In this document: positions 5,035 through 28,642 of the stretch, piece by piece
How the letters are laid out: each line of letters begins with the position of its first letter
How positions within the stretch are numbered: position 1 is the first letter of the stretch
IMG/VR virus record: IMGVR_UViG_2558860274_000008
Location: 1-29,339 of that record
Reading direction: 5' to 3' (one strand)
Length of the DNA: 29,339 bases
DNA from: a virus
Taxonomy: Duplodnaviria; Heunggongvirae; Uroviricota; Caudoviricetes
Program-made: the position numbers and the translations under genes
Notes under the pieces: generated by a model
Databases searched by the model: none
Seen by the model: the letters and a program-made list of their open reading frames with translations, nothing else
Told to the model about the DNA's origin: nothing

Positions 5035-8000
5035 TCATTTTCCTAATTCTCCAGCTAAAAGTTCAGCCTGCTTCAAAACAGTCTCTGTGGCGAGCAATGA
5101 CATATCAGGCGGATAACCATATTTTTTGAGCAGACGTTTTACCACCACGCGAATTTTTGCTCTTGCTGCTTCTTTCACTGTCCAGTCAAGACTGACATTG
5201 TTGCGGATAGCCTCCGTAAGTACGACTGCCAGTTCTCGTAGTTTTTCCTTTTCCATTAACTCGCGAGCACTGTCGTTATCTGCAACAGCAGAATAGAAGG
5301 CATATTCATAAGCGCTGAGGTTTAACTGGCTGGCAAGGCTGTCAGATTCCTGGATAGTCTTGGCAAGCTTGATTAGCTCATCAATTACCTCCGCTGCGGT
5401 CAGTACCTTGTTCTGGTAGCCATTGATTGCAGAGGTCAGCATATCAATCAGTTTTTTGCCTTGGGTGATACTTTGATTCGAGCGAACCTTGATCTCGTCA
5501 GAAAGCAGTTTTTTAAGCGTTTCCAAAGCAATATTTCTGTGTTGGTAATCCTTCATTTCCTGAAGGAATTCTTCAGAAAGAACGGAAATATCAGGTTTTT
5601 GTATCCCAGCAGCGTCAAAAATATCAACAACTTTATCGGTAACCAGAGCCTGATCGATAGTCTGTTTTACCCGAACTTCGAGACTGTCATTGTGTTCTTC
5701 TTCTGATCCGTCTGAGTTTTCAGTAAATTTATTCAGTCTGGCTTTTACTGCCTGGAAGAATGCTACTTCGGGTGCCGCTTCCATTGCTTTATCGTGCGGT
5801 GTCGCCAATGCAAATGCCTGCGATAAGGCTGCAACCGCAGCGAGGAAACGCATTTTACCTTTACCGTTATCCAGCCCTAAAATATGGTTTTCTGATTCAA
5901 GAATAATTGTCAGGCGTTGTGAGGTAGTTGCGGCAAAGTAAGCTTTGTAATCGTATCCATGCATCATGCCTTCCAGGATTTCCAGCTTTTCCTGCATGAG
6001 CGTTACGGCTTCTTCCTGAACCTCAGCAGGATCTCCACGTCCACCTGCATCAGAGTAAAAGGAGAGGGCTTCTTTTAAATCAGAGGCAATGCCCAGATAG
6101 TCAACAACCAGACCGCCTATCTTATCTTTATACACACGGTTCACACGGGCAATTGCCTGCATAAGGTTGTGGCCTTTCATTGGTTTGTCGATATACAGCG
6201 TATGCATGCTGGGAGCGTCGAAGCCGGTTAACCACATATCACGCACTATCACCAGTTTCAGCTTGTCGTCGTCATCCTTCATACGGTTAGCCAGAACCTG
6301 ACGTTCTTTTTTTGTGGTGTGGTGTTTGGCAATTTCTGGCCCGTCAGCAGCAGAAGAGGTCATGACGACTTTTATTATACCGTCATTTAAATCATCGCTG
6401 TGCCATTCAGGTTTTAAGGCTATGATTTCTTTATATAGTTCAGCAGCAATACGGCGGGACATGGTAACAATCATGCCCTTACCATGATCGGCATTGGATT
6501 TTAAGCGCTGCTCAAAGTGCAGAACCATATCCGCCGCAATCGCTTTAATACGTTTTGAACTGCCAATCAAACCTTCGATTCTGGCCCATTTAGAACGTTC
6601 TTTTTGCGTGAGCGTCAGTTCGTCCTCGTTAAACTCATCATCAAAGTCTTCAATAAGCTGACGACCTTCATCACTGATGGCAATTTTGGCAAGACGGCTT
6701 TCATAAAAGATACGAACTGTTGCACCATCTTCAACGGCCTGCGAGATATCGTAGATATCAACATAGTTACCAAAAACAGCAGGCGTGTTGACGTCCGTTT
6801 TTTCTATGGGGGTTCCGGTAAAGCCGAGATAGGTCGCATTAGGTAAGGCATCACGCATATATTTGGCAAAGCCGTAAACGGTGCGTTTACCTGTTACGTT
6901 GCCTTCGCTGTCTTTCACGTCAACTTCTTTGGCGCTGAAACCGTACTGGGAACGGTGTGCTTCATCAGCGATAACGACAATATTGGTTCTGTCTGACAAC
7001 AACTCATAGATATTGCTGCCATCATCAGGCTGGAATTTTTGAATAGTAGTAAACACCACACCGCCAGAGGCGACACGCAAATATTCTTTGAGTTCTTCCC
7101 GGTTGTTGGCCTGTTTTGGTGTCTGACGAAGTAGCTGGGTCGCGGAAGAGAACGTACCGAATAGCTGATCATCTAAGTCGTTACGGTCAGTAATCACAAC
7201 AACTGTCGGATTATCCAGCGCCAGCACAATTTTCCCGGTATAAAACACCATCGAAAGCGATTTACCGGAACCCTGAGTATGCCAGACTACGCCCGCTTTG
7301 CGATCTCCGGTTTTTTGCGCATTAACAAGATCTTTACTGTTACGTCCCTGCTGGCGCAGTGCCACTTCGGCAGAGGGGGAGTCCGCATTCACCGCTGAGG
7401 CACGAATAGTGGAAAGAACTGCTGCATTGACCGCGTAGTACTGGTGATAAGCCGCCATTTTTTTAACAGTACGGATACTGATAATCCCTTTGCTGTCTTC
7501 ATGTTTGCTGGCCTCAAACACGATAAAGTGGCGGATTATATCCAGCAGCGTTACAGGATTAAGCAACCCCTGTAATAAAACTTCAAGCTGTGGTTGGGTA
7601 CTGGTGGCTTGCGTTTTACCGTTAGCAGTTTTCCACGTCATATAACGACTGAAATCGGCAGAAACCGTCCCCGCTTTGGCTTCCAGCCCGTCAGATATCA
7701 CATTAAAAGCATTGTAGTTAAACAGACCGGGGATTTGGTTCTGATAGGTTTTAATCTGATTATAGGCACCTGTTACCGTTGCATTTTCGTCAGCGGCATT
7801 TTTAAGTTCGATAACGACTAATGGCAGGCCATTGATGAATAAAATAAGATCAGGTCGGCGGGTATGGTTGCCTTCTTTGATGGTGAGCTGATTAATGACC
7901 AGAAATGCATTATTAGTGGGATCGTTAAAGTCGATCAGGCTGGCCAGTTCTCCTTGTGTATTACCATCCTTGCTGACTTCGATATTGATTCCTTCGGTCA

Positions 8001-8274
8001 AAAGGCGATGAAAGGTTAGATTGTTTGCCATTAGGTCAGGTGAGCTGGTCTGCATCACCTGTTTTAGAGCTTCTTCACACTTCTGCTCACTAAGGTGCGG
8101 GTTAATTCGTTGCAATGCTGTACGCACTTTATCTTCAAGGATAACCTGCTGATAGCTACGTAACGGATTGATTCCACTGGGTTCAATGTCCGGGCCGTAA
8201 ACATACTCATAGCCCAGCCCTTGCAGGTGCTCAATTGCCATTACTTCAATATCGGATTCGGTCATCTTTGCCAT
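5035..8274 (-). CDS. hsdR: Type I restriction enzyme R subunit (HsdR)
   Basis: 1079-aa ORF with Walker A (TQGSGKSLS) and DEAH box (VIADEAHRSQ) helicase motifs and HsdR-like N- and C-terminal regions. Sits downstream of hsdM-hsdS with an SD (AAGGA) before the ATG. Confidence 0.93.
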   Translation of the reverse strand: MAKMTESDIEVMAIEHLQGLGYEYVYGPDIEPSGINPLRSYQQVILEDKVRTALQRINPHLSEQKCEEALKQVMQTSSPDLMANNLTFHRLLTEGINIEVSKDGNTQGELASLIDFNDPTNNAFLVINQLTIKEGNHTRRPDLILFINGLPLVVIELKNAADENATVTGAYNQIKTYQNQIPGLFNYNAFNVISDGLEAKAGTVSADFSRYMTWKTANGKTQATSTQPQLEVLLQGLLNPVTLLDIIRHFIVFEASKHEDSKGIISIRTVKKMAAYHQYYAVNAAVLSTIRASAVNADSPSAEVALRQQGRNSKDLVNAQKTGDRKAGVVWHTQGSGKSLSMVFYTGKIVLALDNPTVVVITDRNDLDDQLFGTFSSATQLLRQTPKQANNREELKEYLRVASGGVVFTTIQKFQPDDGSNIYELLSDRTNIVVIADEAHRSQYGFSAKEVDVKDSEGNVTGKRTVYGFAKYMRDALPNATYLGFTGTPIEKTDVNTPAVFGNYVDIYDISQAVEDGATVRIFYESRLAKIAISDEGRQLIEDFDDEFNEDELTLTQKERSKWARIEGLIGSSKRIKAIAADMVLHFEQRLKSNADHGKGMIVTMSRRIAAELYKEIIALKPEWHSDDLNDGIIKVVMTSSAADGPEIAKHHTTKKERQVLANRMKDDDDKLKLVIVRDMWLTGFDAPSMHTLYIDKPMKGHNLMQAIARVNRVYKDKIGGLVVDYLGIASDLKEALSFYSDAGGRGDPAEVQEEAVTLMQEKLEILEGMMHGYDYKAYFAATTSQRLTIILESENHILGLDNGKGKMRFLAAVAALSQAFALATPHDKAMEAAPEVAFFQAVKARLNKFTENSDGSEEEHNDSLEVRVKQTIDQALVTDKVVDIFDAAGIQKPDISVLSEEFLQEMKDYQHRNIALETLKKLLSDEIKVRSNQSITQGKKLIDMLTSAINGYQNKVLTAAEVIDELIKLAKTIQESDSLASQLNLSAYEYAFYSAVADNDSARELMEKEKLRELAVVLTEAIRNNVSLDWTVKEAARAKIRVVVKRLLKKYGYPPDMSLLATETVLKQAELLAGELGK

Positions 8275-8332
8275 GCGTACTGTCCTTATTGCCGCTTAAC
8301 CAGAGAGCGGGCTGTACACCCGCATAATTATT

Positions 8333-9526
8333 TTATGCTACTGATGCGATTGCTTCTTCCGCATACTGAACCCGTACTTCGCCGCTCATCAGTTTGGGAA
8401 GGAGAGTGTCGCGCAGAGATTCTATGTTTTTAATTTGTGAGTTGTTAATACTTATTTTTTTCCAGAAGAAATCAATCTGTGTAGTGAATTCTTTCACCAT
8501 ACACTCCGGGGGGAGTTTGAATTCTGGGCGTTGTAATCCGTCAGCCGACAGCTGATTTACAGTTGAACCGTTAGTTGCAGCAACAACTTGCTCATGCATA
8601 TCTTTGGAGCAAAGTAAATAGTACAGAAAAGCATTGGTTAAGTAACTATCGTCATTGATGCTGATTTTAAATAAATGATGCGTATATATGGATAATTCGC
8701 TTTCTGTTTTTGGAATTATAGCAGGATACCCTATGAGTCGATATTCATGGCCCTGTTCTGTATTGGCTACAATGATATCCCCAGGCTTTATAATATGCCT
8801 TTCTTTAAAATCACCATTGTAGTATTTTATACCTGCACTCTTATAACCACCGCCCTCAAGTACTGAGTTCAAACTAAAAAGTGGAATGCCGTTATCTGAC
8901 GTGGTAAGGCCGGCTCCCTTGTAGCTTAATCCCTTAGCTACTGTAATATGACAATCAAGAGTCGTTATTTCCCAATCCGCATGCGTCTCTTCAATAAACC
9001 ACTGTCTAAATAGGGTTTCTGCCATGGATTCCAGAGTTTTATTCTGGCGATGAAGCAGGTCTATTTTGTCTTTAAGAGAGGACAAAATAGAGGCGATGGC
9101 TTTTTGTTCAGATTCATCAATTGGTAAGTAAAGAGGAATCAAATTTAGCGATGCTTTATTTAATTTTGGTTGAGCAGCACCTGTTAAATAAGGAGATAGA
9201 TCAAGCTGTGAAAAATATTGGATTATCAATGCCGTTAAATGGGGCTTTTTAGCTTTAAGGACATGAGCGTGATTATTAACCCAAAATTTTCCAGTAGCTT
9301 CAAATGCTATAGGTGTTTTTCTGGACTTTAAGTTTTCTCCATCTTCAGAAATAAGGATGTAGCTGCCATCAAAAATATAATTGTCGATATAATCGACAAT
9401 TCCTGACGCTCCATAATATGGAAAATTTCCTTTCTTATGGGCTCGTTCCATAGCACTCAAAGGAATTCTTTGTGCGTTGCAAAAATCTGCTAATTCAGTT
9501 ATACAAAAATTTCTCCACCTACTCAT
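8333..9526 (-). CDS. hsdS: Type I restriction-modification specificity subunit (HsdS)
   Basis: 397-aa ORF between hsdM and hsdR, with a 4-nt overlap onto the hsdM stop. Two variable target-recognition halves separated by a conserved coiled-coil-like spacer ([13 protein letters not shown] type). Confidence 0.88.
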
Positions 9527-11070
9527 AAAACCACCTTCGCCAGATTATCAACGATGGCTCTGTTCAGACGCGCCTCTTCTTCCAGTTGCGCTTCAAACTC
9601 AGCTTTAAGAGCCGTAAAGCGTTCTTTAAAGTCGAAATCGTCTTCTTCATCAGCAAGACCAACATAACGGCCAGGTGTCAGCACATAATCGAGTTTAGCA
9701 ACTTCAGCAATGTCTACTGACGCACAGAAACCAGCGACGTCTTCGTAGTCGCCACCTTTGTTACGCCAGTTATGATAGGTATCAGCGATGGTTTTTATAT
9801 CGTCGTCAGAAAGTACTTTGGTACGACGATTAATTAAATGACCGAGATTACGGGCATCAATAAACAGAATTTCTTTACTACGATCACGATACTGGTTGCT
9901 GTTATGACGGTCACGGCGCATAAACCATAATGCAGCAGGGATCTGAGTATTCAGGAACAGCTTTGCCGGTAAGTTGACGATACAGTCAATCACATTGGCA
10001 TCTTTTACCAGTGCAGCACGAATATCACCTTCACCAGAGCTTTTAGAAGTTAATGCCCCTTTTGCCAGAACAACACCCGCTTGCCCTTTAGGAGACAAGT
10101 GATACAAAAAATGTTGCATCCATGCAAAGTTAGCGTTGCCAGCAGGTGGAATGCCATATTGCCAGCGGGCATCACCACGAAGCTGCTCACCAGACCAGTC
10201 GGAAACGTTAAACGGTGGGTTAGCTATGATAAAATCAGATTTCAAATCTTTGTGAGCATCGTTAAGAAATGAACCTTCATTATTCCAGCGAACGTGTTCA
10301 GAATTAATCCCACGAATTGCCAGGTTCATTTTTGCCAGACGCCAAGTGGTCTGGTTGGACTCCTGCCCATAGATCGAAATATCGTCAATATTTCCCTGAT
10401 GTGCTTCTACAAATTTTTCTGACTGAACGAACATACCACCAGAACCACAGCAGGGATCAAAGACACGGCCTTTATAGGGTTCCAGCATGTTAACCAGCAG
10501 GCTTACAATAGATTTTGGCGTATAGAACTGGCCGCCTTGTTTGCCTTCTGCCAGTGCAAATTCACCTAGGAAGTATTCGAATACGTGACCTAAAACGTCA
10601 GCAGAGCGTGCTTTGGCATCTCCTAGTGCAATGTTGCCAATCAGATCTATCAGCTCACCCAGAACAGTGGCGTCGAGGTTTTGTCGGGCATAGACTTTCG
10701 GCAACACACCTTTTAACTGTGGATTGCCCGCTTCGATAAGCTCCATCGCATCATCAACCATCTTACCGATTTCAGGAAGCTTGGCCTTAGAAATCAGATA
10801 GTTCCAACGTGCAAGCTCAGGGACAAAGAAAACGTTGTAAGCGGTGTACTCGTCTTTGTCTTCCGGATCAGCACCTGCGAACTCGCCTTTACCGGCTTTC
10901 AGCAACTCATAATGAGATTCAAAAGAATCAGAAATGTACTTAAGGAAAATGAGGCCTAGTACGACGTGCTTGTACTCGGCTGCATCAATGTTTTTACGCA
11001 GTTTGTCTGCCGCTTTCCACAGGATGACCTCTAACGGGTCTGTTTTGATTTCTTTAGGTTTTCTGGCCAT
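9523..11070 (-). CDS. hsdM: Type I restriction-modification N6-adenine DNA methyltransferase (HsdM)
   Basis: 515-aa ORF with the SAM-binding motif ([12 protein letters not shown]) and catalytic NPPF motif (IIANPPFN). Confidence 0.93.
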
Positions 11071-11552: not shown

Positions 11553-12665
11553 CGTGTCCGTTTTAGCAGGGACAACTCCAGTATTCAAAAAAGCTTTCTT
11601 AGTGCATATGCATGAGGTGAATAGATGTACAGGCTATGACAAACCATAGTTGTAATTTTTAATGTTTAAAATTCTCCGTTACAGTAGGACATTCCTTGTA
11701 CATTAAATTCCATCTAAGGTTGAATTTTTAATTTAATAAGGTCGCAATCTAAAATGATGTGTATGGGGTTATTTGTAAGATGATTTTTTATTTTTGATAG
11801 TGGTGATTAAGGGAGCGGGTAATGTTTGTCTATTCAAAAATATAGAGATTCAAGGTTGGTAGCAGTTTGGCTTCTTTTATAACCGAAGGGCAGAAAAGCA
11901 AGGGGAACTCGAAGAAGCAAGCGCAGCGGCTTCGCAGAGTTAGCCCTTGCTTCTCTTATAATTGGCATTATTCATTCAAGAACAATAGGATCTTCGCTTG
12001 TACAAGCGAAGCTATAATAAAAACAATCAATTAATAATTTTAAAAGTATTAAACAAGAACCTATTGACATTCATAAAATACAAGTTATTTATAATGTATG
12101 CCATAAATAAAAAGTTTTATGTCATATGTATCCTGCACTATGTGCAGTTAATGTACCACTTGTCCCATAGATGGGAATATTGGAAAGGTTACTTTGTTTT
12201 GAAGTAGCCTTTCGTCCTTCAATATTAACGATTACTTATTGCTATTACCAAGTCCAGTCGAATCGAAGAACATCTTTTATCTGAAACGACTCCTAATACC
12301 CGGTTAAAACCACAATATCTCTCGCATACGTAGACCAAAGAAAAATTATGATATTAACTATGTGATTTTTTTAGTGTTAAGTTGAATAATTAAATACTGG
12401 AGAGTTTTCTGTGCACTACCAATTGCTGGTTCATCTGTTCTGCCGCTGATGTTTCTGACGAATCTCCCGGTGACACAGAACTGTCCCTCTCTACCAGCCT
12501 TTATTCGACTCAATGTCCGGCTGCTGATACGCAGTTATCCCTTCGTATCAATGACTGACACTTAAACGTAATGCTTTGGTTGCTGGCGTATCTGACAGCT
12601 TCTTCGGCGTGAAGGTCGTTGTGTAAGTATACTTCTTGGTTTATTTAGGCTATATAAAACCATGA

Positions 12666-13562
12666 CTATGACTTGCTGTTTTCAGTAAGAGTCTTATCAT
12701 CCAAAGAATTTATTCTAGAAATTCTTTTTAACTCATTAAGATAATCAACCTCGTTTTCTAAGAACCAATGAAGAACTTTAGAATTGCCAAGTAATTTATT
12801 AATATATGACTGGATTATAACGAATTTCAACATATCTGAACCATACTCGGTTTGAAGCTTTTTCGTTTCTTCCGAAGTTGTTGCCATTTCTTGTTCCAGA
12901 CGAAGTATGGTTTTTTTTATGTCCTTTTTATAGGGAGTGTTTTTCCCTTTATTTACTATCATCGATGCCGGTGTTGCATCCAAGATGCTCATTGCAAATT
13001 TTTTACTATAATTATCAAAATTAATCATTGTACCGACTGCTTCAATTTGGCGAATTGGCTTCATTTTCCTCAAAACGTCAAATGTAGCCTTAGGTATAGG
13101 TTTATCAGAAAGTTTCGCAATTACACTTGGATCTATGCCGTTCATCACATTCGCTTTATCTTTTATGGCATCAACAGATATGCCCAAAGCAGCACTAAGT
13201 TTTTCAATTGATACTTTTGCCAGAGACTTAATTATCATTCTATGTTCTTCAACTACATTTATATGATTCACTTGTTTGTTAGGAGTGAAAGCATCATCTA
13301 TGCTCGAAAGTATACATGGAGCTTTTTCTATACCTAAGTCTTTTAAAGCCTCAACCCTTAAATGGCCATCAAGTATCTTAGTGACATCTTTATCTTTGTC
13401 ATAGAATACTATTATTGGTTCAATAATACCTAAGCTTTCGATAGAGGTAACTATTTGATGATATTTATGGCTTCGCTTTACGTTTTCTAATAATTCCTTA
13501 GATGGAATTAACTTATTAGTTTCCAGGTAAATAAAATTATCGCCAAAACGTATCTGAATCAT
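12666..13562 (-). CDS. ParB-like protein (ParB/Spo0J N-terminal-domain fold plus HTH), paralog 2
   Basis: 298-aa ORF with segment IIEPIIVFYDKDKDVTKILDGHLRVEALKDLGIEKAPCIL and HTH-like SIEKLSAALGISVDAI. Start overlaps the upstream paralog's stop (ATGA). AT-rich. Confidence 0.65.
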   Translation of the reverse strand: MIQIRFGDNFIYLETNKLIPSKELLENVKRSHKYHQIVTSIESLGIIEPIIVFYDKDKDVTKILDGHLRVEALKDLGIEKAPCILSSIDDAFTPNKQVNHINVVEEHRMIIKSLAKVSIEKLSAALGISVDAIKDKANVMNGIDPSVIAKLSDKPIPKATFDVLRKMKPIRQIEAVGTMINFDNYSKKFAMSILDATPASMIVNKGKNTPYKKDIKKTILRLEQEMATTSEETKKLQTEYGSDMLKFVIIQSYINKLLGNSKVLHWFLENEVDYLNELKRISRINSLDDKTLTENSKS

Positions 13563-14455
13563 TTTAATACCTCTTTGTTTACTGGGGTTAATATCTGAGA
13601 TGGTAGTTCTGAAAGATTCTCTTGTTCAAGTATATGTTGAAAGCTTTTATTCATCATTATGATGTTAAAAATCTCATTTACTATTAGTAGGTTGGTTTTT
13701 ATGAATTTTGAGTTGTTATAAACAGATTTATGTTCAGCGATACTATTTTCATAAAGCTCAATCAACTCCTCTGCAGTCATCCTTTTTGATGGTTTGTGAT
13801 AATAAAATCCGGCTGCTTTTGCACCTTTATTCCCAACTGTTCTTTGATTTAGAATGTGTTTTATCTTTATAATGTCCCGACTTTTTATTAATTTTTTATC
13901 ATATGCTTCGGTAAGAATATCTTGTGCTTCCTCAGTTTCACATCTTGCAAATTGCACTGCGAGATACAGAGGCAAATTACCCCGTTCGACTGCTGAGAGA
14001 AGTTTATGCTCTCCCTTATCAAGTAGCATATTAATACTGCTCACCCAGTTCGATGAATATCCAGTAATCTCACTTATTTCGGAGTCTGAAAGTCCTCTGA
14101 TTTTCATGTCTTTAATCACCTGTAATAACTCATTAGAACGTGGTCTTCTCCTTGCAATGTTTTCAACTAAACTCATAACGTAAGCATCTTCTTCTGATAC
14201 ATCTCTTATAATTGCTGGAATAATAGTTTCACCTAATGCAACGAGAGCCTCTATTCTCCCTTGACCACAAATTAAAGCATATTTGAAATCACCTTCATCA
14301 ATAGCTCTTACGCTTATTGGCTTGCTTAATCCTCTTTTTTTTATGCTTTCCTTTATTTCTTCATGCACTACCTTATTTCTTGTTCGTGGGTTAAGAAATT
14401 TTATTTTTGCAATCTCAATTTGAATTATTGGGAATTCATTTTTTTCAGGCAGCAT
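13559..14455 (-). CDS. ParB-like protein (ParB/Spo0J N-terminal-domain fold plus HTH), paralog 1
   Basis: 298-aa ORF with segment KPISVRAIDEGDFKYALICGQGRIEALVALGETIIPAIIRDVSEEDAYVMSLVENIARRRP that parallels the Spo0J/ParB boxes (…Y.LIAGERR.RA…G…VPAIVRD…ENLQR). The arginine-rich motif is degenerate (GQGRIEA). Overlaps the recombinase stop by 11 nt. Confidence 0.7.
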   Translation of the reverse strand: MLPEKNEFPIIQIEIAKIKFLNPRTRNKVVHEEIKESIKKRGLSKPISVRAIDEGDFKYALICGQGRIEALVALGETIIPAIIRDVSEEDAYVMSLVENIARRRPRSNELLQVIKDMKIRGLSDSEISEITGYSSNWVSSINMLLDKGEHKLLSAVERGNLPLYLAVQFARCETEEAQDILTEAYDKKLIKSRDIIKIKHILNQRTVGNKGAKAAGFYYHKPSKRMTAEELIELYENSIAEHKSVYNNSKFIKTNLLIVNEIFNIIMMNKSFQHILEQENLSELPSQILTPVNKEVLK

Positions 14456-16001
14456 ATAGTTCCCTCACTTTCATGCGAGTAATAATTTGTAGAAGTTTAT
14501 CAAGATTATCAAATCTATAGAGATCTAATCGAATGTTGTTTGTTTCCGTCATGCACATTTTATTATATTCGTTTTCAATCTTTGGTATGATATAAAAATC
14601 AAGAGGTGAAATATTTTGTGAATTCATTCGTATAACAATTGTTATGTCTGCTTTCTGTGAGTTATCAAACCGGACTTTCCATCTAAGTTTACCTGATTTC
14701 ATATGTATGCATTTAGTAACAAGGACGGAAATTAAAAACTCATCATTGATGTAAAGCATTGGGGCATATTTATACTCGTCTATATGACAGTTACTTTTTA
14801 AAATTTCACCCTTAAAATCCTCAATTATCTCTGAGTAAAATGATCTTAGTGCTTCATTTATTTTGAGATAGCTGTAATCATGTTCTGGCTTATAACCAAT
14901 CAAAGTATATGCTCTTAAAAGACCACCAAATCGGGTTCTATAAACAGAAGATGAAGGGCCTGTATCATCTTCATCAATGATAAAGCCTGATAGTTTTCCA
15001 TTAGATTCTAATTTTTGTTTTAGTTTTTCTAATAGATCTTCATTAGTCAAATGAATGGATCGGAGCTGAATTATTTCTTGAGCTTTATTGTATTTTTTCT
15101 TTGAAATAATAGGTTTATATGCCTTGTCACATCTAACCCATTCATGTTTGGGGTTTTTTACAAGCCTACTTTTTAATTTAGATGAGGTTTTGTTATATAT
15201 GTTGTTTCCAATATATTTTTCATTTGTCAAAATTTGATGTATTTTTGCACGAGTCCATAATGTTCCATTTTCTGCAGGTATGTTCTGTTCATTTAATCTC
15301 TCAGCAATAATGAATTCTGGGACGTTATTATCTATAAAGAGATCATATATTCTATTTACAATTTTTATTTCATTTTTTGGTCCCGGAATTAATATTACCC
15401 TATCTGTTTGAATACTCTTTCTTTTGCGGAAACTCAATATTTCTTTAGCTATGCCATTTTCGTCTACTAAAAGACGTCTCAGCCCATAACCAGCCATACC
15501 GCCTTGATGATAACCAAGCTTTATTAAATTTACTTGCCCTATAAATACCTTTTCAGATAGATTCCTGCTGTGATATGCAGCACTAGATCTTTTTATATTC
15601 AGTATAACAGAGGACTCTAAAGGGAAATCTTTAGTGGGTATAGGTTCGGAACAATATATAAGATCTACACCATTTCTCTCAAATAGAAAGGAATAATATG
15701 CCGCTTCATCACTATTTTGAAAACGACCAAAACGGCTCACATCATAAAATAATACAGCCTGTATATCTATTTTCTTTTGTTCTACATCGCTAAGTAACTG
15801 CTGCAAAGAATGCCTGCCTACGATACTGACTCCGCTCTTACCTGCATCATCGTAGGTATAAGCGATTTCCATATTGTTCTTTTCAGCATAATCTTTGATA
15901 TATTCGGACTGATTATGTAAAGAATATTGCTGATGGTCGGTAGACATCCTCAAGTACTGCGCGACCCTAACTCTATGATTTTTGTCATTTTCGCTAGCCA
16001 T
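14445..16001 (-). CDS. Large serine recombinase (resolvase/invertase-type catalytic domain plus recombinase domain)
   Basis: 518-aa ORF whose N-terminus (VAQYLRMSTDHQ...YDDAGKSG...LQQLL...DVSRFGR) matches the serine-recombinase catalytic-domain pattern, followed by a long C-terminal extension typical of large serine recombinases. AT-rich, with an SD before the ATG. Confidence 0.85.
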   Translation of the reverse strand: MASENDKNHRVRVAQYLRMSTDHQQYSLHNQSEYIKDYAEKNNMEIAYTYDDAGKSGVSIVGRHSLQQLLSDVEQKKIDIQAVLFYDVSRFGRFQNSDEAAYYSFLFERNGVDLIYCSEPIPTKDFPLESSVILNIKRSSAAYHSRNLSEKVFIGQVNLIKLGYHQGGMAGYGLRRLLVDENGIAKEILSFRKRKSIQTDRVILIPGPKNEIKIVNRIYDLFIDNNVPEFIIAERLNEQNIPAENGTLWTRAKIHQILTNEKYIGNNIYNKTSSKLKSRLVKNPKHEWVRCDKAYKPIISKKKYNKAQEIIQLRSIHLTNEDLLEKLKQKLESNGKLSGFIIDEDDTGPSSSVYRTRFGGLLRAYTLIGYKPEHDYSYLKINEALRSFYSEIIEDFKGEILKSNCHIDEYKYAPMLYINDEFLISVLVTKCIHMKSGKLRWKVRFDNSQKADITIVIRMNSQNISPLDFYIIPKIENEYNKMCMTETNNIRLDLYRFDNLDKLLQIITRMKVRELYAA

Positions 16002-16170
16002 GCACGAAACCTCATGGATGATTCAATACAATGTAGTGGATAAAATTGATCAAATTTCAACCGAATTCAACTGTTTTATCATTGATTAGAGCGAATTTGG
16101 TAGATCTTCGAGGTGTATGATAATCGAGAAGAGATGTGAATTATTTAGCTGATATGACCGACAGCTTTCG

Positions 16171-16220
16171 TTATGTGGACTCAATGTCCCCATTTGTAAA
16201 TGGCTATGCTTAGTCCACAT
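16171..16220. promoter_or_regulatory. Nested dyad-symmetric site upstream of the serine recombinase operon
   Basis: Perfect 10-bp inverted repeat TATGTGGACT (16171-16180) / AGTCCACATA (16211-16220) enclosing an inner near-palindrome CCATTT-GT-AAATGG. No T-tract, so unlikely to be a terminator. Confidence 0.5.
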
Positions 16221-16283
16221 AGGTTAATGGTGTGATTATTAATTCTTTAACTAAATCAAGATAGTTAATCCATCATGGGAGAG

Positions 16284-17513
16284 TTATGCGGCAATAACTT
16301 TGCATTTTTGAGACGAAACATAGTCACTCCACCATTGCATGAGAACCACCCGTTCAGTGAGATACTCTGCACGATTGTAGGCTGCAATTATTTCATCTTT
16401 CTTCGAGTGGGCAAGGGCGGCTTCTAAGACATCAGTCCTAAACTTGCCAGACTCCTCAGCAGCCGTTCTAGCAATGGATCGCATACCGTGAGCTACAAGC
16501 TCACCTCCGAAACCCATACGGATTATGGCCGCATTAGCTGTTTGTTCATGCATGTGATTGAGTGGAGCTTTGATACTGGGGAACACCCACTCTCTATGCC
16601 CGCTGATGACTTTCATTAAATCCAAAACTCGCAAAGCTTCTTTGCTCAGTGGAACTTTGTGAGGCTTCTTCATTTTCATAAACTCCGCCGGGATGTTCCA
16701 CATGCCAGTTTCAATATCAATATCTGACCATCTTGTGCGAACAGCTTCACCTGGGCGAACCCATGTGAGAAGTTGCCACTCAATCAGTAGCCTTGTTTCC
16801 AAACGGATAGAAGCATTGTTTAGAGCAACCAAGAAGCGAGGGAGTTCGGAAGGGGGTAATGCTGGCATATTCTGTTTTTTTGGCTTGCTGAACCGTTGCC
16901 CCAGGTTGTCTGCCGGGTTGAATTCTATGAGTTCTTCTGTTGCTGCATAGCGGAAAATTTCATTCAGGCGGGATATGATGCGGCGAAGTGTTTCAAGGAC
17001 ACCTCGTTTTTCTATGGGTTCTAAATGCTGTTTAAGCATTTTAGGGCGAATCTCCTTAATTGGGGTATCACCCAATGTGGAAAAGATATTTCTCTCTAGG
17101 CTTCGCCAGATGTCGTTAGCATGATCTTGGGAGATGCCTGACGTTTTGACTTTCTCATCAAGCCACTTCTTGGCTACTGCTTGAAATGTATGTTCCGTGG
17201 CATCTTTCAGTGCATTGGCTTTTTGGTTGTTATGAACTTGGGGGTCTATACCATTTGTAAGCAACGACAAGTATTCATCACGTAAAGCTCGTGCCTTCGC
17301 AAGTGTAAGGTGAGGATAGGTTCCTAAGCTCACCTTAGTTCGCTTTTTGGTCACAGGCACTGCATATCTGAAATACCAATTTTTCTTCCCTCCCTTCGCC
17401 AGGGGAGCGATTCGCAACAGCAAACCATCGCCGTCAAAAAGGTTCACCTCTTTTTCGGCAGGTTTGGTGCTTTTGATTTCAGTGTCAGTGAGCTTCTTAG
17501 CGATTTTGGCCAT
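16284..17513 (-). CDS. int: P4-type tyrosine integrase
   Basis: Start placed at the internal Met (MAKIAKKLTDTEIK...), which has a GAGGG SD 8 nt upstream. C-terminal region has the tyrosine-recombinase R...H..R..Y pattern (AHGMRSIARTAA...AYNRAEYL). Sits next to a degenerate ssrA 3'-end repeat. Confidence 0.88.
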   Translation of the reverse strand: MAKIAKKLTDTEIKSTKPAEKEVNLFDGDGLLLRIAPLAKGGKKNWYFRYAVPVTKKRTKVSLGTYPHLTLAKARALRDEYLSLLTNGIDPQVHNNQKANALKDATEHTFQAVAKKWLDEKVKTSGISQDHANDIWRSLERNIFSTLGDTPIKEIRPKMLKQHLEPIEKRGVLETLRRIISRLNEIFRYAATEELIEFNPADNLGQRFSKPKKQNMPALPPSELPRFLVALNNASIRLETRLLIEWQLLTWVRPGEAVRTRWSDIDIETGMWNIPAEFMKMKKPHKVPLSKEALRVLDLMKVISGHREWVFPSIKAPLNHMHEQTANAAIIRMGFGGELVAHGMRSIARTAAEESGKFRTDVLEAALAHSKKDEIIAAYNRAEYLTERVVLMQWWSDYVSSQKCKVIAA

Positions 17514-17611
17514 GTTTGGGACCCTCGATTTTAGGACCCATCTTCGTGGGTCCCATTCAGGGTGCCATAACTCGTAGTTCTCAGCAATTCTCACTAGACT
17601 ACAATAGACGT

Positions 17612-17644
17612 AAAAAAGCCCGCAGAGCTTGTGCTGTGCGGGCT
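17612..17644 (-). terminator. Rho-independent terminator-like hairpin (minus strand) between the degenerate att repeat and int
   Basis: GCCCGCACAGCACAAGCTCTGCGGGC followed by a T-run on the minus strand. Nearly identical to the hairpin at 22175-22207. Confidence 0.6.
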
Positions 17645-17679
17645 TAGTAGACTTTACTGAACTTCAGTACATCAATATT

Positions 17680-17701
17680 TGGTGGGCTGGCGGAGTTTGA
17701 A
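17680..17701. repeat. Degenerate copy of the ssrA 3' end (oldest att remnant)
   Basis: TGGTGGGCTGGCGGAGTTTGAA versus TGGTGGAGCTGGCGGGAGTTGAACC at 22243 and 28280. Same position relative to the terminator hairpin and integrase as the copy at 22243. Confidence 0.6.
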
Positions 17702-17845
17702 TAAATATCGTATTGCTTTGATTTTTAATGGTTTTGTTTAATTCAGTTTTTGTGCGTATACCTAATCGTATACCAATGGCTGTAAGTTAATGTGAAATGA
17801 AAGCGCATTTTTACTTGGATTGATGCTATATCGTACAGGAAAAAA

Positions 17846-22242: not shown

Positions 22243-22287
22243 TGGTGGAGCTGGCGGGAGTTGAACCCGCGTCCGAAATTCCTACAT
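22243..22287. repeat. Direct repeat of the ssrA 3' end (att core) between the P2-like and P4-like remnants
   Basis: 45-bp exact match to 28280-28324 (TGGTGGAGCTGGCGGGAGTTGAACCCGCGTCCGAAATTCCTACAT). Confidence 0.9.
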
Positions 22288-28279: not shown

Positions 28280-28642
28280 TGGTGGAGCTGGCGGGAGTTG
28301 AACCCGCGTCCGAAATTCCTACATCCTCGGTACTACATGCTTAGTCAGTCTTTACATTCGCTTGCCAGCTGCGGACGGACACGCCACTAACAAACTAGCC
28401 TGATTAAGTTTTAACGCTTCAACCCCAGGCAGGGCTTCCACGCGATCTCTTTTGGGTTTGACCTCTCTTGATCCCCGTCCTAAGAGCGGAGGCTAGGGAG
28501 AGAGGGCTCTAAGCAGGTTATTAAGCTGCTAAAGCGTAGTTTTCGTCGTTTGCGACTATTTTTTGCGGCTTTTTACGAGGCCAACCGCCCCTCGGCATGC
28601 ACCTTGGGTTTCGCAAATCCCGTCGAATCCAGAATCAGCCCC
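28280..28642 (-). ncRNA. ssrA: tmRNA (SsrA), 363 nt
   Basis: Reverse complement reads GGGGCTGATTCTGGATTCGACGGG...GCAAACGACGAAAACTACGCTTTAGCAGCTTAA (ANDENYALAA tag)...GGTTCAACTCCCGCCAGCTCCACCA, matching enterobacterial ssrA as I recall it. Confidence 0.95.

Follow-up and report, generated by a model that had tools for sequence, protein, structure and literature searches.

A large serine recombinase and two ParB-like proteins encoded by a conserved, translationally coupled operon in an ssrA island of Escherichia coli

What might a large serine recombinase do when it is encoded together with two ParB-like proteins in an island that also carries a tyrosine integrase? This question is raised by a 29,339-nucleotide (nt) stretch of DNA (i.e., IMG/VR virus record IMGVR_UViG_2558860274_000008, positions 1 to 29,339; the whole stretch is referred to here as the window). 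The window is Escherichia coli DNA surrounding the transfer-messenger RNA (tmRNA) gene ssrA, and it contains the following three genes (referred to here as the trio):

14445 to 16001, minus strand: large serine recombinase (SR), 518 amino acids (aa); Pfam Resolvase (PF00239) and Recombinase (PF07508)
13559 to 14455, minus strand: ParB-A, 298 aa; Pfam ParB_N (1.6e-13) and RepB (8.5e-8)
12666 to 13562, minus strand: ParB-B, 298 aa; Pfam RepB (2.2e-24) and ParB_N (1.1e-5)

We show that the trio is a conserved, selected, and translationally coupled obligate unit, and we weigh the functions that this unit may have.

Gene order, coupling, and selection

The end of SR and the start of ParB-A overlap by 11 nt, and ParB-A and ParB-B overlap by 4 nt (ATGA). 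A preliminary description, made from the window alone, had taken the three genes to be one operon, and these overlaps, together with the recurrence of the same order and junctions in related loci, confirm it. Its direct readings of the DNA also hold: the block is AT rich (G+C content, 0.31 to 0.34 over 12.0 to 16.0 kb versus 0.44 to 0.46 in the flanking integrase and hsdM regions), the quoted motifs (YLRMSTDHQ, DDAGKSG, VSRFGR, GQGRIEA, and DGHLRVEA) are all present in the translations, and annotation places a P4-type integrase directly upstream and hsdMSR downstream of the trio.

Strong purifying selection acts on each of the three genes. The ratio of nonsynonymous to synonymous substitution rates (dN/dS) was 0.04 to 0.10 at dS values of up to approximately 1.1 (SR, 0.07 to 0.10; ParB-A, 0.07; ParB-B, 0.04 to 0.07), and these values rule out the trio being a decaying remnant.

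Trio DNA was found in 660 of 5,426 complete E. coli genomes, always on the chromosome and almost always in a single copy, and a megablast search of plasmid records gave no match to it. A profile scan of IMG/VR recovered 431 relatives, and a scan of one genome per species recovered at least 557 relatives from Alpha-, Beta-, Gamma-, and Deltaproteobacteria, Bdellovibrionaceae, an acidobacterial metagenome-assembled genome (MAG), and others. We fetched 80 loci from each set (160 in total) for the analysis of gene order. The order SR, ParB-A, ParB-B was colinear in nearly all of the IMG/VR loci where the sequence continues (apparent exceptions are L076 and L079, with no ParB-B match, and L063, with a truncated ParB-A), and it was kept in the species-genome loci wherever the contig continues, except in L128 (a partial ParB-A and no ParB-B match). 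Overlaps of the 4-nt ATGA type are seen at almost all of the related loci, and both order and overlapping junctions persist down to approximately 35% protein identity; a 7.5-kb human-gut contig, for example, has the same three genes, order, and overlapping junctions at 42%, 37%, and 35% identity. Because the same order and junctions recur in 160 independent loci, the arrangement is far from chance, and the co-occurrence of a recombinase with two ParB-like genes, proposed earlier as a candidate module, is conserved across genomes. Distant copies of the trio are also carried by 103 plasmids, mostly rhizobial megaplasmids; in a reverse check starting from ParB-B, the two plasmid matches inspected (pAtC58 and a Paraburkholderia replicon) both had the full trio.

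The recombinase and the ParB-like proteins

SR consists of a catalytic domain (residues ~14 to 152), a recombinase domain (~210 to 312), a helical region (~330 to 372), and a conserved C-terminal domain (~375 to 518). The serine-recombinase N terminus read from its motifs is borne out by Pfam (PF00239, 7.7e-22), with PF07508 matching residues 210 to 312 (6e-22) and no further Pfam domain. Residues R18, S20, D87, R90, and R93 are invariant in alignments of 17 to 42 diverse homologs; every serine-recombinase catalytic residue is thus kept, and SR is predicted to be catalytically intact. Its matches to the SPbeta, Bxb1, phiC31, and TP901-1 integrases, found with Protein Data Bank (PDB) profiles and Foldseek, end at approximately residues 323 to 330, and the Foldseek alignment of the SR model to the SPbeta, Bxb1, and phiC31 integrases covers approximately 330 columns. 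No zinc ribbon was found (no PF13408 match at an E value of ≤0.1; CxxC pairs absent from both the sequence and the invariant columns). The helical region contains a HEAR-like motif (PSSxxYxxRFGGLxRAYxLIGY), which is conserved after the recombinase domain as PSSxxYxxRFGSLxxAYxLIGY, and some homologs match PF18780. The conserved C-terminal domain (~140 residues) had no solved relative among the PDB-profile and Foldseek matches; the AlphaFold model is of moderate confidence overall (predicted local distance difference test score, 66), and the score of this domain (~30 to 55) is too poor for its fold to be interpreted. NCBIfam gave only subthreshold matches, to CcrB/CcrC-type recombinases.

Judged by its sequence, SR is an architecturally unusual large serine recombinase that lacks the zinc-ribbon/coiled-coil module for DNA recognition and directionality. 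Its subfamily comprises 1,348 clusters at 50% identity (E value, ≤1e-30), at least 150 of which match over the full length, including the C-terminal domain. A distinct and very large subfamily that recognizes DNA without a zinc ribbon would be relevant to the search for new genome integration tools. Further, different serine recombinase genes (443 to 574 aa) lie within a few kilobases of the trio in six loci (L034, L037, L041, L044, L117, and L160).

The family alignment of ParB-A reveals a ParB/Srx N-terminal domain with invariant C-G-Q/E-G-R and E-N-x-x-R, a helix-turn-helix (HTH), a GEERL motif, and a RepB-type C-terminal region. Relative to the canonical GERRxRA/ENLQR pocket, G-x-G-R and E-N-x-x-R are kept, the first Arg is lost, and Q replaces E. 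ParB-B has a divergent ParB N-terminal domain with an invariant D-G-H-x-R, has lost the box III Arg, and continues into an HTH/RepB domain and a helical C terminus. The preliminary description of two ParB-like paralogs with an HTH and a degenerate box therefore stands as regards the ParB_N domain, the HTH, and the degenerate motifs; the paralogy itself is only remote (30% identity over 63 residues). Over the N-terminal domain and HTH, the best solved relatives are Spo0J, Noc, ParB, and KorB for ParB-A and Noc, Spo0J, and KorB for ParB-B, and both proteins appear to resemble DNA-binding CTPase clamps of the Spo0J/Noc/KorB kind. These relatives displace the suggested analogy to GmrSD/DUF262-type nuclease modules, and Pfam and PADLOC gave no DUF262, DUF1524, or Dnd match to the trio proteins. 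NCBIfam returned only subthreshold matches to ParB/Noc/RepB models, and PHROGs lists ParB-A (phrog_3951) and ParB-B (phrog_31451) as being of "unknown function."

Island context, cassette ends, and a tail RNA

The remaining features of the window are as follows:

5035 to 11070, minus strand: type I restriction-modification (R-M) cargo downstream of the trio, i.e., hsdM (9523 to 11070), hsdS (8333 to 9526), and hsdR (5035 to 8274); RefSeq annotation of the identical region
16002 to 16283, minus strand: 282-nt spacer from the integrase stop to the SR start; presumed promoter/operator region, containing an imperfect palindrome
16284 to 17594, minus strand: P4-type tyrosine integrase of the ssrA island; Pfam Arm-DNA-bind_3, Phage_int_M, and Phage_integrase; NCBIfam PRK09692
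17676 to 17701: degenerate copy of the ssrA 3' end (attachment site, att), the integrase-proximal end of the innermost island; blastn
17.7 to 22.2 kb: P4-type integrase and Psu remnant
22.3 to 28.2 kb: P2-like remnant (gpU, gpD, CI, and integrase)
28280 to 28642: tmRNA gene ssrA (tag peptide, ANDENYALAA)

A blastn comparison of the ssrA 3' end with the window located copies at 17676 to 17701, at 22243 to 22287, and in ssrA itself (28280 to 28324). These three copies define a tandem array of three integrative elements, the innermost of which carries the P4-type integrase, the trio, an insertion sequence (IS) fragment, and hsdMSR. The same island abuts ssrA directly in avian pathogenic E. coli (APEC) O78. 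A minimal island (ssrA-integrase-trio), cut off by IS1 just past ParB-B, is present in C41(DE3), B-ZidR, and the E. coli B derivative NEBExpress (L002; NZ_CP053599, 12065 to 16912). The tmRNA locus is hotspot number 9 of E. coli in the survey of Hochhauser et al. 2023 (PMC10121019), where defense islands with only integrase/recombinase genes, whose mobilization mechanism is unknown, are a recognized class. A subthreshold partial Rfam match to the IsrM island small RNA lies just upstream of the integrase start, beside the att copy (17612 to 17800, minus strand; 46.8 bits; E value, 8.6e-11; gathering score, 376).

Across 602 E. coli genomes, an integrase allele of ≥95% identity is essentially always followed by the trio, and ssrA integrases of approximately 80% identity carry other cargo without it, with homology breaking at the integrase 3' end. 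In a divergent lineage (E14; 94.6% identity over the trio), the operon has been relocated into a tRNA-Arg island with an integrase 3' fragment still attached (~92% identity from the 5' end of SR through the spacer into the 3' part of the integrase), and another lineage (L016; 88% identical) keeps the integrase-spacer-trio arrangement. On the basis of these three observations, the integrase and the trio travel together in E. coli despite their contrast in G+C content. The integrase-SR spacer measures 276 to 282 nt in all enteric copies (10 loci), integrase-SR adjacency recurs in Pseudomonas, Sphingopyxis, and Rhodospirillaceae, and the main-cluster tyrosine integrase is present in 35 of 161 loci. 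The AT-rich block had been thought to have an origin separate from that of the integrase; against this view stand the co-inheritance, the trio-free integrases of 80% identity, the integrase part still joined to the trio in E14, and the adjacency in other taxa. No second trio lineage suitable for empty-site mapping was found in E. coli.

When 2,469 neighboring open reading frames were clustered, the trio alone was common to the loci. Among 126 loci, the position immediately upstream is occupied by a divergent gene of ~130 aa in 39 (with operator-like repeats in one group), by a Cys-rich codirectional gene of ~150 aa in 17, and by a tyrosine integrase in 10, and all genes downstream of the trio are variable. 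In eight loci (L023, L025, L027, L029, L031, L102, L153, and L156), a tandem operator-like repeat (GCACAnnTGTGCCCAT twice) lies between the divergent gene and SR, ~120 to 165 nt upstream of the SR start, and suggests that the ~130-aa protein may be a repressor of the trio operon.

As had been noted for the window, the trio sits among defense genes, and its neighbors include toxin-antitoxin (TA), Abi, R-M, Thoeris, and similar genes. Annotated upstream neighbors are Fic/DOC, ParE, and AbiEi/AbiEii, and annotated downstream neighbors are type I R-M, WYL plus SNF2 helicase, AAA_21 plus RloB, DUF6361-PLD-helicase, DUF3987, and a ParB-methylase. Type I R-M genes follow the trio in E. coli, Acinetobacter, Advenella, and a Rhodospirillaceae MAG (clusters c12, c26, and c13; Pfam). 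On pAtC58 and the 30-kb Paraburkholderia replicon, the trio lies among Abi, Fic, TA, and R-M genes, away from rep/parA. A PADLOC scan of 140 neighbors was dominated by redundant type I S-subunit models. In the 36 loci with full flanks, Pfam lists of top families, taken over unequal distance windows, contain host-like genes 2.5 to 10 kb upstream (two-component systems, LysR, LspA, YidC, glutathione S-transferase, and metabolism) versus HsdS, ThsB-TIR, SIR2, ApeA, WYL, AAA_21, DUF6361, methylase, phage-tail, and Trb genes 0.25 to 8 kb downstream.

Different genera share a block of ~5 to 5.5 kb at >90% nucleotide identity in different contexts, and the homology stops at fixed points ~213 to 245 bp past ParB-B. 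The right end of this cassette is the operon terminator hairpin and its left end is the stop codon of an upstream Fic or ParE-module gene; the boundaries were accordingly rejected as att sites. Two candidate sites within the window were also set aside. The imperfect palindrome at 16172 to 16221 (24-nt arms, 75% complementary, 2-nt center) is kept in L016, is altered noncompensatorily in E14, is not enriched relative to shuffled sequences (z = 1.5), and has no partner site within the window; on these grounds, it was not adopted as an SR or ParB site. A perfect 14-nt inverted repeat (AATTCCATCTAAGG at 11706 to 11719 and CCTTAGATGGAATT at 13496 to 13509) brackets most of ParB-B and the downstream noncoding region, and it is probably due to chance because other E. 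coli lineages lack the distal copy. Stx2l prophages of E. coli O8 strains have been reported to be inserted "at parB" beside the recombinase WP_000135615, which is mentioned there once, incidentally (PMC9227347); this position would be within or next to the trio, and a lambdoid attB site may therefore reside in one of the two ParB-like genes.

In 42 loci, mostly alphaproteobacterial, a core of ~105 nt lies 30 to 60 nt after ParB-B and is 80 to 97% identical where the trio proteins are only 45 to 60% identical. Examples of the motif (~105 to 120 nt) are as follows:

L110, 13358 to 13478, plus strand
L113, 4789 to 4909
L020, 11373 to 11493
L074, 5742 to 5885

The core folds into five helices, with 98% of cells paired versus approximately 40% when the partners were slid. 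Eight pairs change on both sides, a level of covariation reached by none of 500 shuffles, and G-U pairs assign the RNA to the strand of the trio. A small fourth protein gene was rejected because every reading frame of either strand shows the similarity, i.e., the conservation is at the nucleotide level. A covariance model also detected the RNA in loci on which it had not been trained, including one in a genome with 37% G+C content; it matched neither the E. coli window nor any of the enteric and betaproteobacterial loci, and the tail after ParB-B in the window showed no unusual folding. Rfam 15 had no match to the tail RNA and none relevant to this region of the window. The tail thus appears to be a previously uncatalogued structured RNA motif, and it constitutes a separate new lead.

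A 13-mer of this RNA, GCGGNGGGRATGG, recurs on the same strand 4.2 to 6.7 kb upstream, just outside the left edge of the cassette, in 10 of 36 RNA-bearing loci (one further occurrence is on the opposite strand), and could be an att-like bracket or a tRNA-like fragment. Left-edge loci are as follows:

L110, 8565 to 8577
L137, L139, L116, L045, L152, L149, and L056

Three betaproteobacterial loci (L099, L132, and L157) have a conserved 245-nt tail of their own after ParB-B, which ends in GGTGGGGATGGATGAGCGAACAGCGGCAC, exactly where the homology between these loci stops; this tail shares a GGTGGGGATGG..GCGAAC motif with the alphaproteobacterial RNA. A Pseudolabrys MAG (JARYIJ010000001) carries two divergent, convergently oriented trio copies approximately 56 kb apart (L095 and L127, at ~1.88 and 1.94 Mb), each followed by the RNA motif.

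Candidate functions and known systems

Our preferred reading, with a probability of approximately 0.4, is that the trio is a self-contained site-specific recombination/maintenance module that belongs to the backbone of a widespread family of integrative islands, prophage-associated islands, and megaplasmid regions with mostly defense or addiction cargo. ParB-A and ParB-B would form a heterocomplex that binds one or more specific sites in the element, and at least ParB-A, which keeps GxGR and ENxxR, would act as a nucleoside triphosphate (probably CTP)-dependent clamp. Site choice and/or control of directionality, which the truncated SR lacks, would come from this complex; alternatively, the complex would couple recombination to the silencing or regulation of the element, as with KorB or BisD. 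SR would perform strand exchange on island DNA, for excision/integration or for the resolution of replicated or tandem copies; alternatively, it would exchange the cargo region that starts directly after the operon terminator.

Several lines of evidence count in favor of this reading. The gene order, the 4-nt overlaps, the invariant catalytic and pocket residues, and the dN/dS values point to a working unit, and the proteins fit the proposed roles (i.e., a large-serine-recombinase fold over ~330 residues without a zinc ribbon, and ParB-like proteins that match Spo0J, Noc, and KorB). The surroundings add the recurrent small gene and tyrosine integrase neighbors, the variable downstream genes, the co-inheritance in 602 genomes, the fixed enteric spacer, the cassette conserved at >90% identity between genera, and the host-like genes far upstream versus the defense and mobile-element cargo downstream. 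The upstream addiction modules (ParE, Fic, and AbiE) resemble the stability regions of mobile elements, and the integrase/recombinase-only islands at E. coli hotspots are a recognized, unexplained class (PMC10121019).

Other results weigh against it. The tyrosine integrase already explains integration in E. coli and several other lineages, which leaves SR without a demonstrated job. No terminal repeats, target duplications, or recombination sites were found around the cassette, whose sharp ends are those of a gene and of the operon; none of 16 small contigs had the terminal overlaps of a circular or excised form; and the E. coli genomes, with one trio copy each, contained no rearrangement polymorphism attributable to SR. 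The asymmetry in gene content is weakened by its unequal windows and top-family lists, distance-matched G+C content did not differ between upstream and downstream (P = 0.44), and the proximity of the trio to contig ends was not significantly polar (P = 0.11 and 0.87). Because neither of the last two measures is polar, placement of the trio at the island edge is weakly supported. If the preferred reading is right, it would offer a mechanism for the unexplained class of recombinase-only defense islands and a new job for the ParB-CTPase fold, i.e., as a recombinase partner.

The main rival, which we consider somewhat unlikely, is that the trio is itself an antiphage or antiplasmid defense system. 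The two ParB-like proteins would recognize, or be loaded onto, invading DNA, or would sense a phage product, and SR as the effector would introduce double-strand breaks or generate aberrant recombination products in the invader. Such a role would suit a neighborhood dominated by type I R-M, AbiEi/AbiEii, Fic, ParE, WYL plus SNF2, AAA_21 plus RloB, DUF6361-PLD-helicase, ThsB-TIR, SIR2, and ApeA genes, the tmRNA locus as a recognized defense hotspot, and a self-contained cassette that moves between contexts with its own regulator and terminator. It would also suit the location of trios at prophage ends, where defense morons accumulate, and the trio as the sole cargo of the island in E. coli B. 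However, no PADLOC model matched, candidate systems included, the trio has no other effector domain, and we know of no precedent for a serine recombinase as a defense effector. E. coli B/BL21, which carries the trio, is moreover a classic phage-sensitive host, and its fixed place beside integrases and its inheritance together with one integrase allele are more in keeping with a backbone gene than with exchangeable cargo. If a defense role were established, the trio would be the first defense system with a serine recombinase.

A bolder proposal, which we regard as unlikely, is that two ParB-type nucleotide-switch clamps (with the structured RNA in one large clade) direct the zinc-ribbon-less SR as a new kind of DNA-transaction system, either as a defense or antiplasmid effector that cuts or scrambles invader DNA or as an integron-like platform that captures and exchanges defense cassettes just past the operon.

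It is quite improbable that the trio is a plasmid-type stability cassette of elements that are extrachromosomal or replicate once excised, in which SR would resolve multimers and the ParB-like proteins would provide segregation that is independent of ParA or hijacks a host or helper ParA, or KorB-like global repression (cf. RK2 parCBA/parDE). The divergent TA genes beside the trio (ParE/antitoxin, HigBA, AbiE, and Fic) mirror the known RK2 par layout, 103 plasmids (mostly megaplasmids) carry copies, 7 betaproteobacterial loci have a replication-type gene (DUF3987) immediately after the trio, and the ParB-like proteins best match partition and KorB proteins. Against this, most copies are chromosomal, including all 661 in E. 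coli; the cassette has no ParA, centromere-like repeat array, or rep gene and lies away from repABC on megaplasmids; no res-like site array was detected upstream; and resolvases are normally small serine recombinases with an HTH of their own.

That SR is a DNA invertase or switch, flipping a nearby segment to vary the expression of the ParB-like or cargo (e.g., R-M) genes, is very improbable: the perfect 14-nt inverted repeat of the window and the ability of recombinases beside type I R-M loci to drive phase variation speak for it, but other E. coli lineages, whose downstream region has been replaced, lack this repeat, there is a single hsdS gene, the 660 E. coli genomes gave single colinear matches with no inverted arrangement, and no conserved inverted repeats occur at other loci.

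Since E. coli B/BL21-derived strains natively carry the minimal island (ssrA-integrase-trio-IS1), direct testing is feasible whether the trio is a recombination/maintenance module or a defense system.

The preliminary description had found the gene combination unfamiliar, and full-text literature searches likewise returned no description of the trio. PADLOC-DB v2 had no match for SR, and the ParB-like proteins matched only weakly, to the portion of a type II methyltransferase model that represents ParB_N; the trio thus lies outside the PADLOC models. Nor is it a canonical partition cassette, as had been argued from the lack of a ParA partner. The annotations of the identical APEC O78 region and of the pAtC58 and Paraburkholderia regions contain no ParA/Walker ATPase, no recurrent ATPase neighbor emerged among the 126 loci, and no centromere-like repeat array was found in the window, only the single imperfect palindrome. 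The inspected plasmid trios are not part of a known backbone with ParA and a centromere, because they sit away from rep/parA among the Abi, Fic, TA, and R-M genes described above. With ParABS systems, the trio shares ParB_N, an HTH, and a C-terminal dimerization-type architecture; it differs in having no ParA, no parS array that we could find, and two heterologous ParB-like proteins whose CTP motifs are degenerate and whose genes are coupled to that of a recombinase.

The par region of RK2/RP4 (parCBA plus parDE) is similarly a mobile-element stability region with an operon of a serine recombinase and two further genes beside divergent ParDE-type TA genes. In RK2, however, the protein named ParA is a small resolvase, and the one named ParB has no relation to ParB/Srx but is a staphylococcal-nuclease-like enzyme, whereas the trio is mostly chromosomal, its SR is of the large type (518 aa, PF07508), and both partners have the ParB/Srx fold and an HTH. 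The islands of Hochhauser et al. 2023 resemble that of the window in their tmRNA hotspot, their defense cargo, and their possession of only integrase/recombinase genes with no known mobilization machinery; they constitute a category without a mechanism, and the trio is neither named nor analyzed there.

The large serine integrases (phiC31, Bxb1, SPbeta SprA/SprB, A118, and TP901-1) are the best sequence and fold matches of SR, with the same Ser nucleophile and Arg/Asp catalytic domain, long alpha-E helix, and recombinase domain, and they too depend on partner proteins for control. In contrast to SR, with its conserved C-terminal domain of ~195 residues without a solved relative, they carry a zinc ribbon/coiled coil, and their partner is a small recombination directionality factor rather than two ParB-type proteins of 300 aa; unlike them, the trio has no att sites that we could find and often coexists with a tyrosine integrase. 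Among mobile-element proteins with a ParB N-terminal domain and an HTH that are not simple centromere binders, the closest parallels are KorB of RK2, one of the solved relatives, and BisD of the integrative and conjugative element (ICE) ICEclc; according to PMC12409273, BisD is a ParB-like CTP clamp and acts from a distance to activate ICE genes. The trio differs from both in that it has no KorA/IncC-type partner, in its box II (i.e., GQGR and DGHLR instead of GERRxRA), and in having two obligate, divergent paralogs that are translationally coupled to a recombinase.

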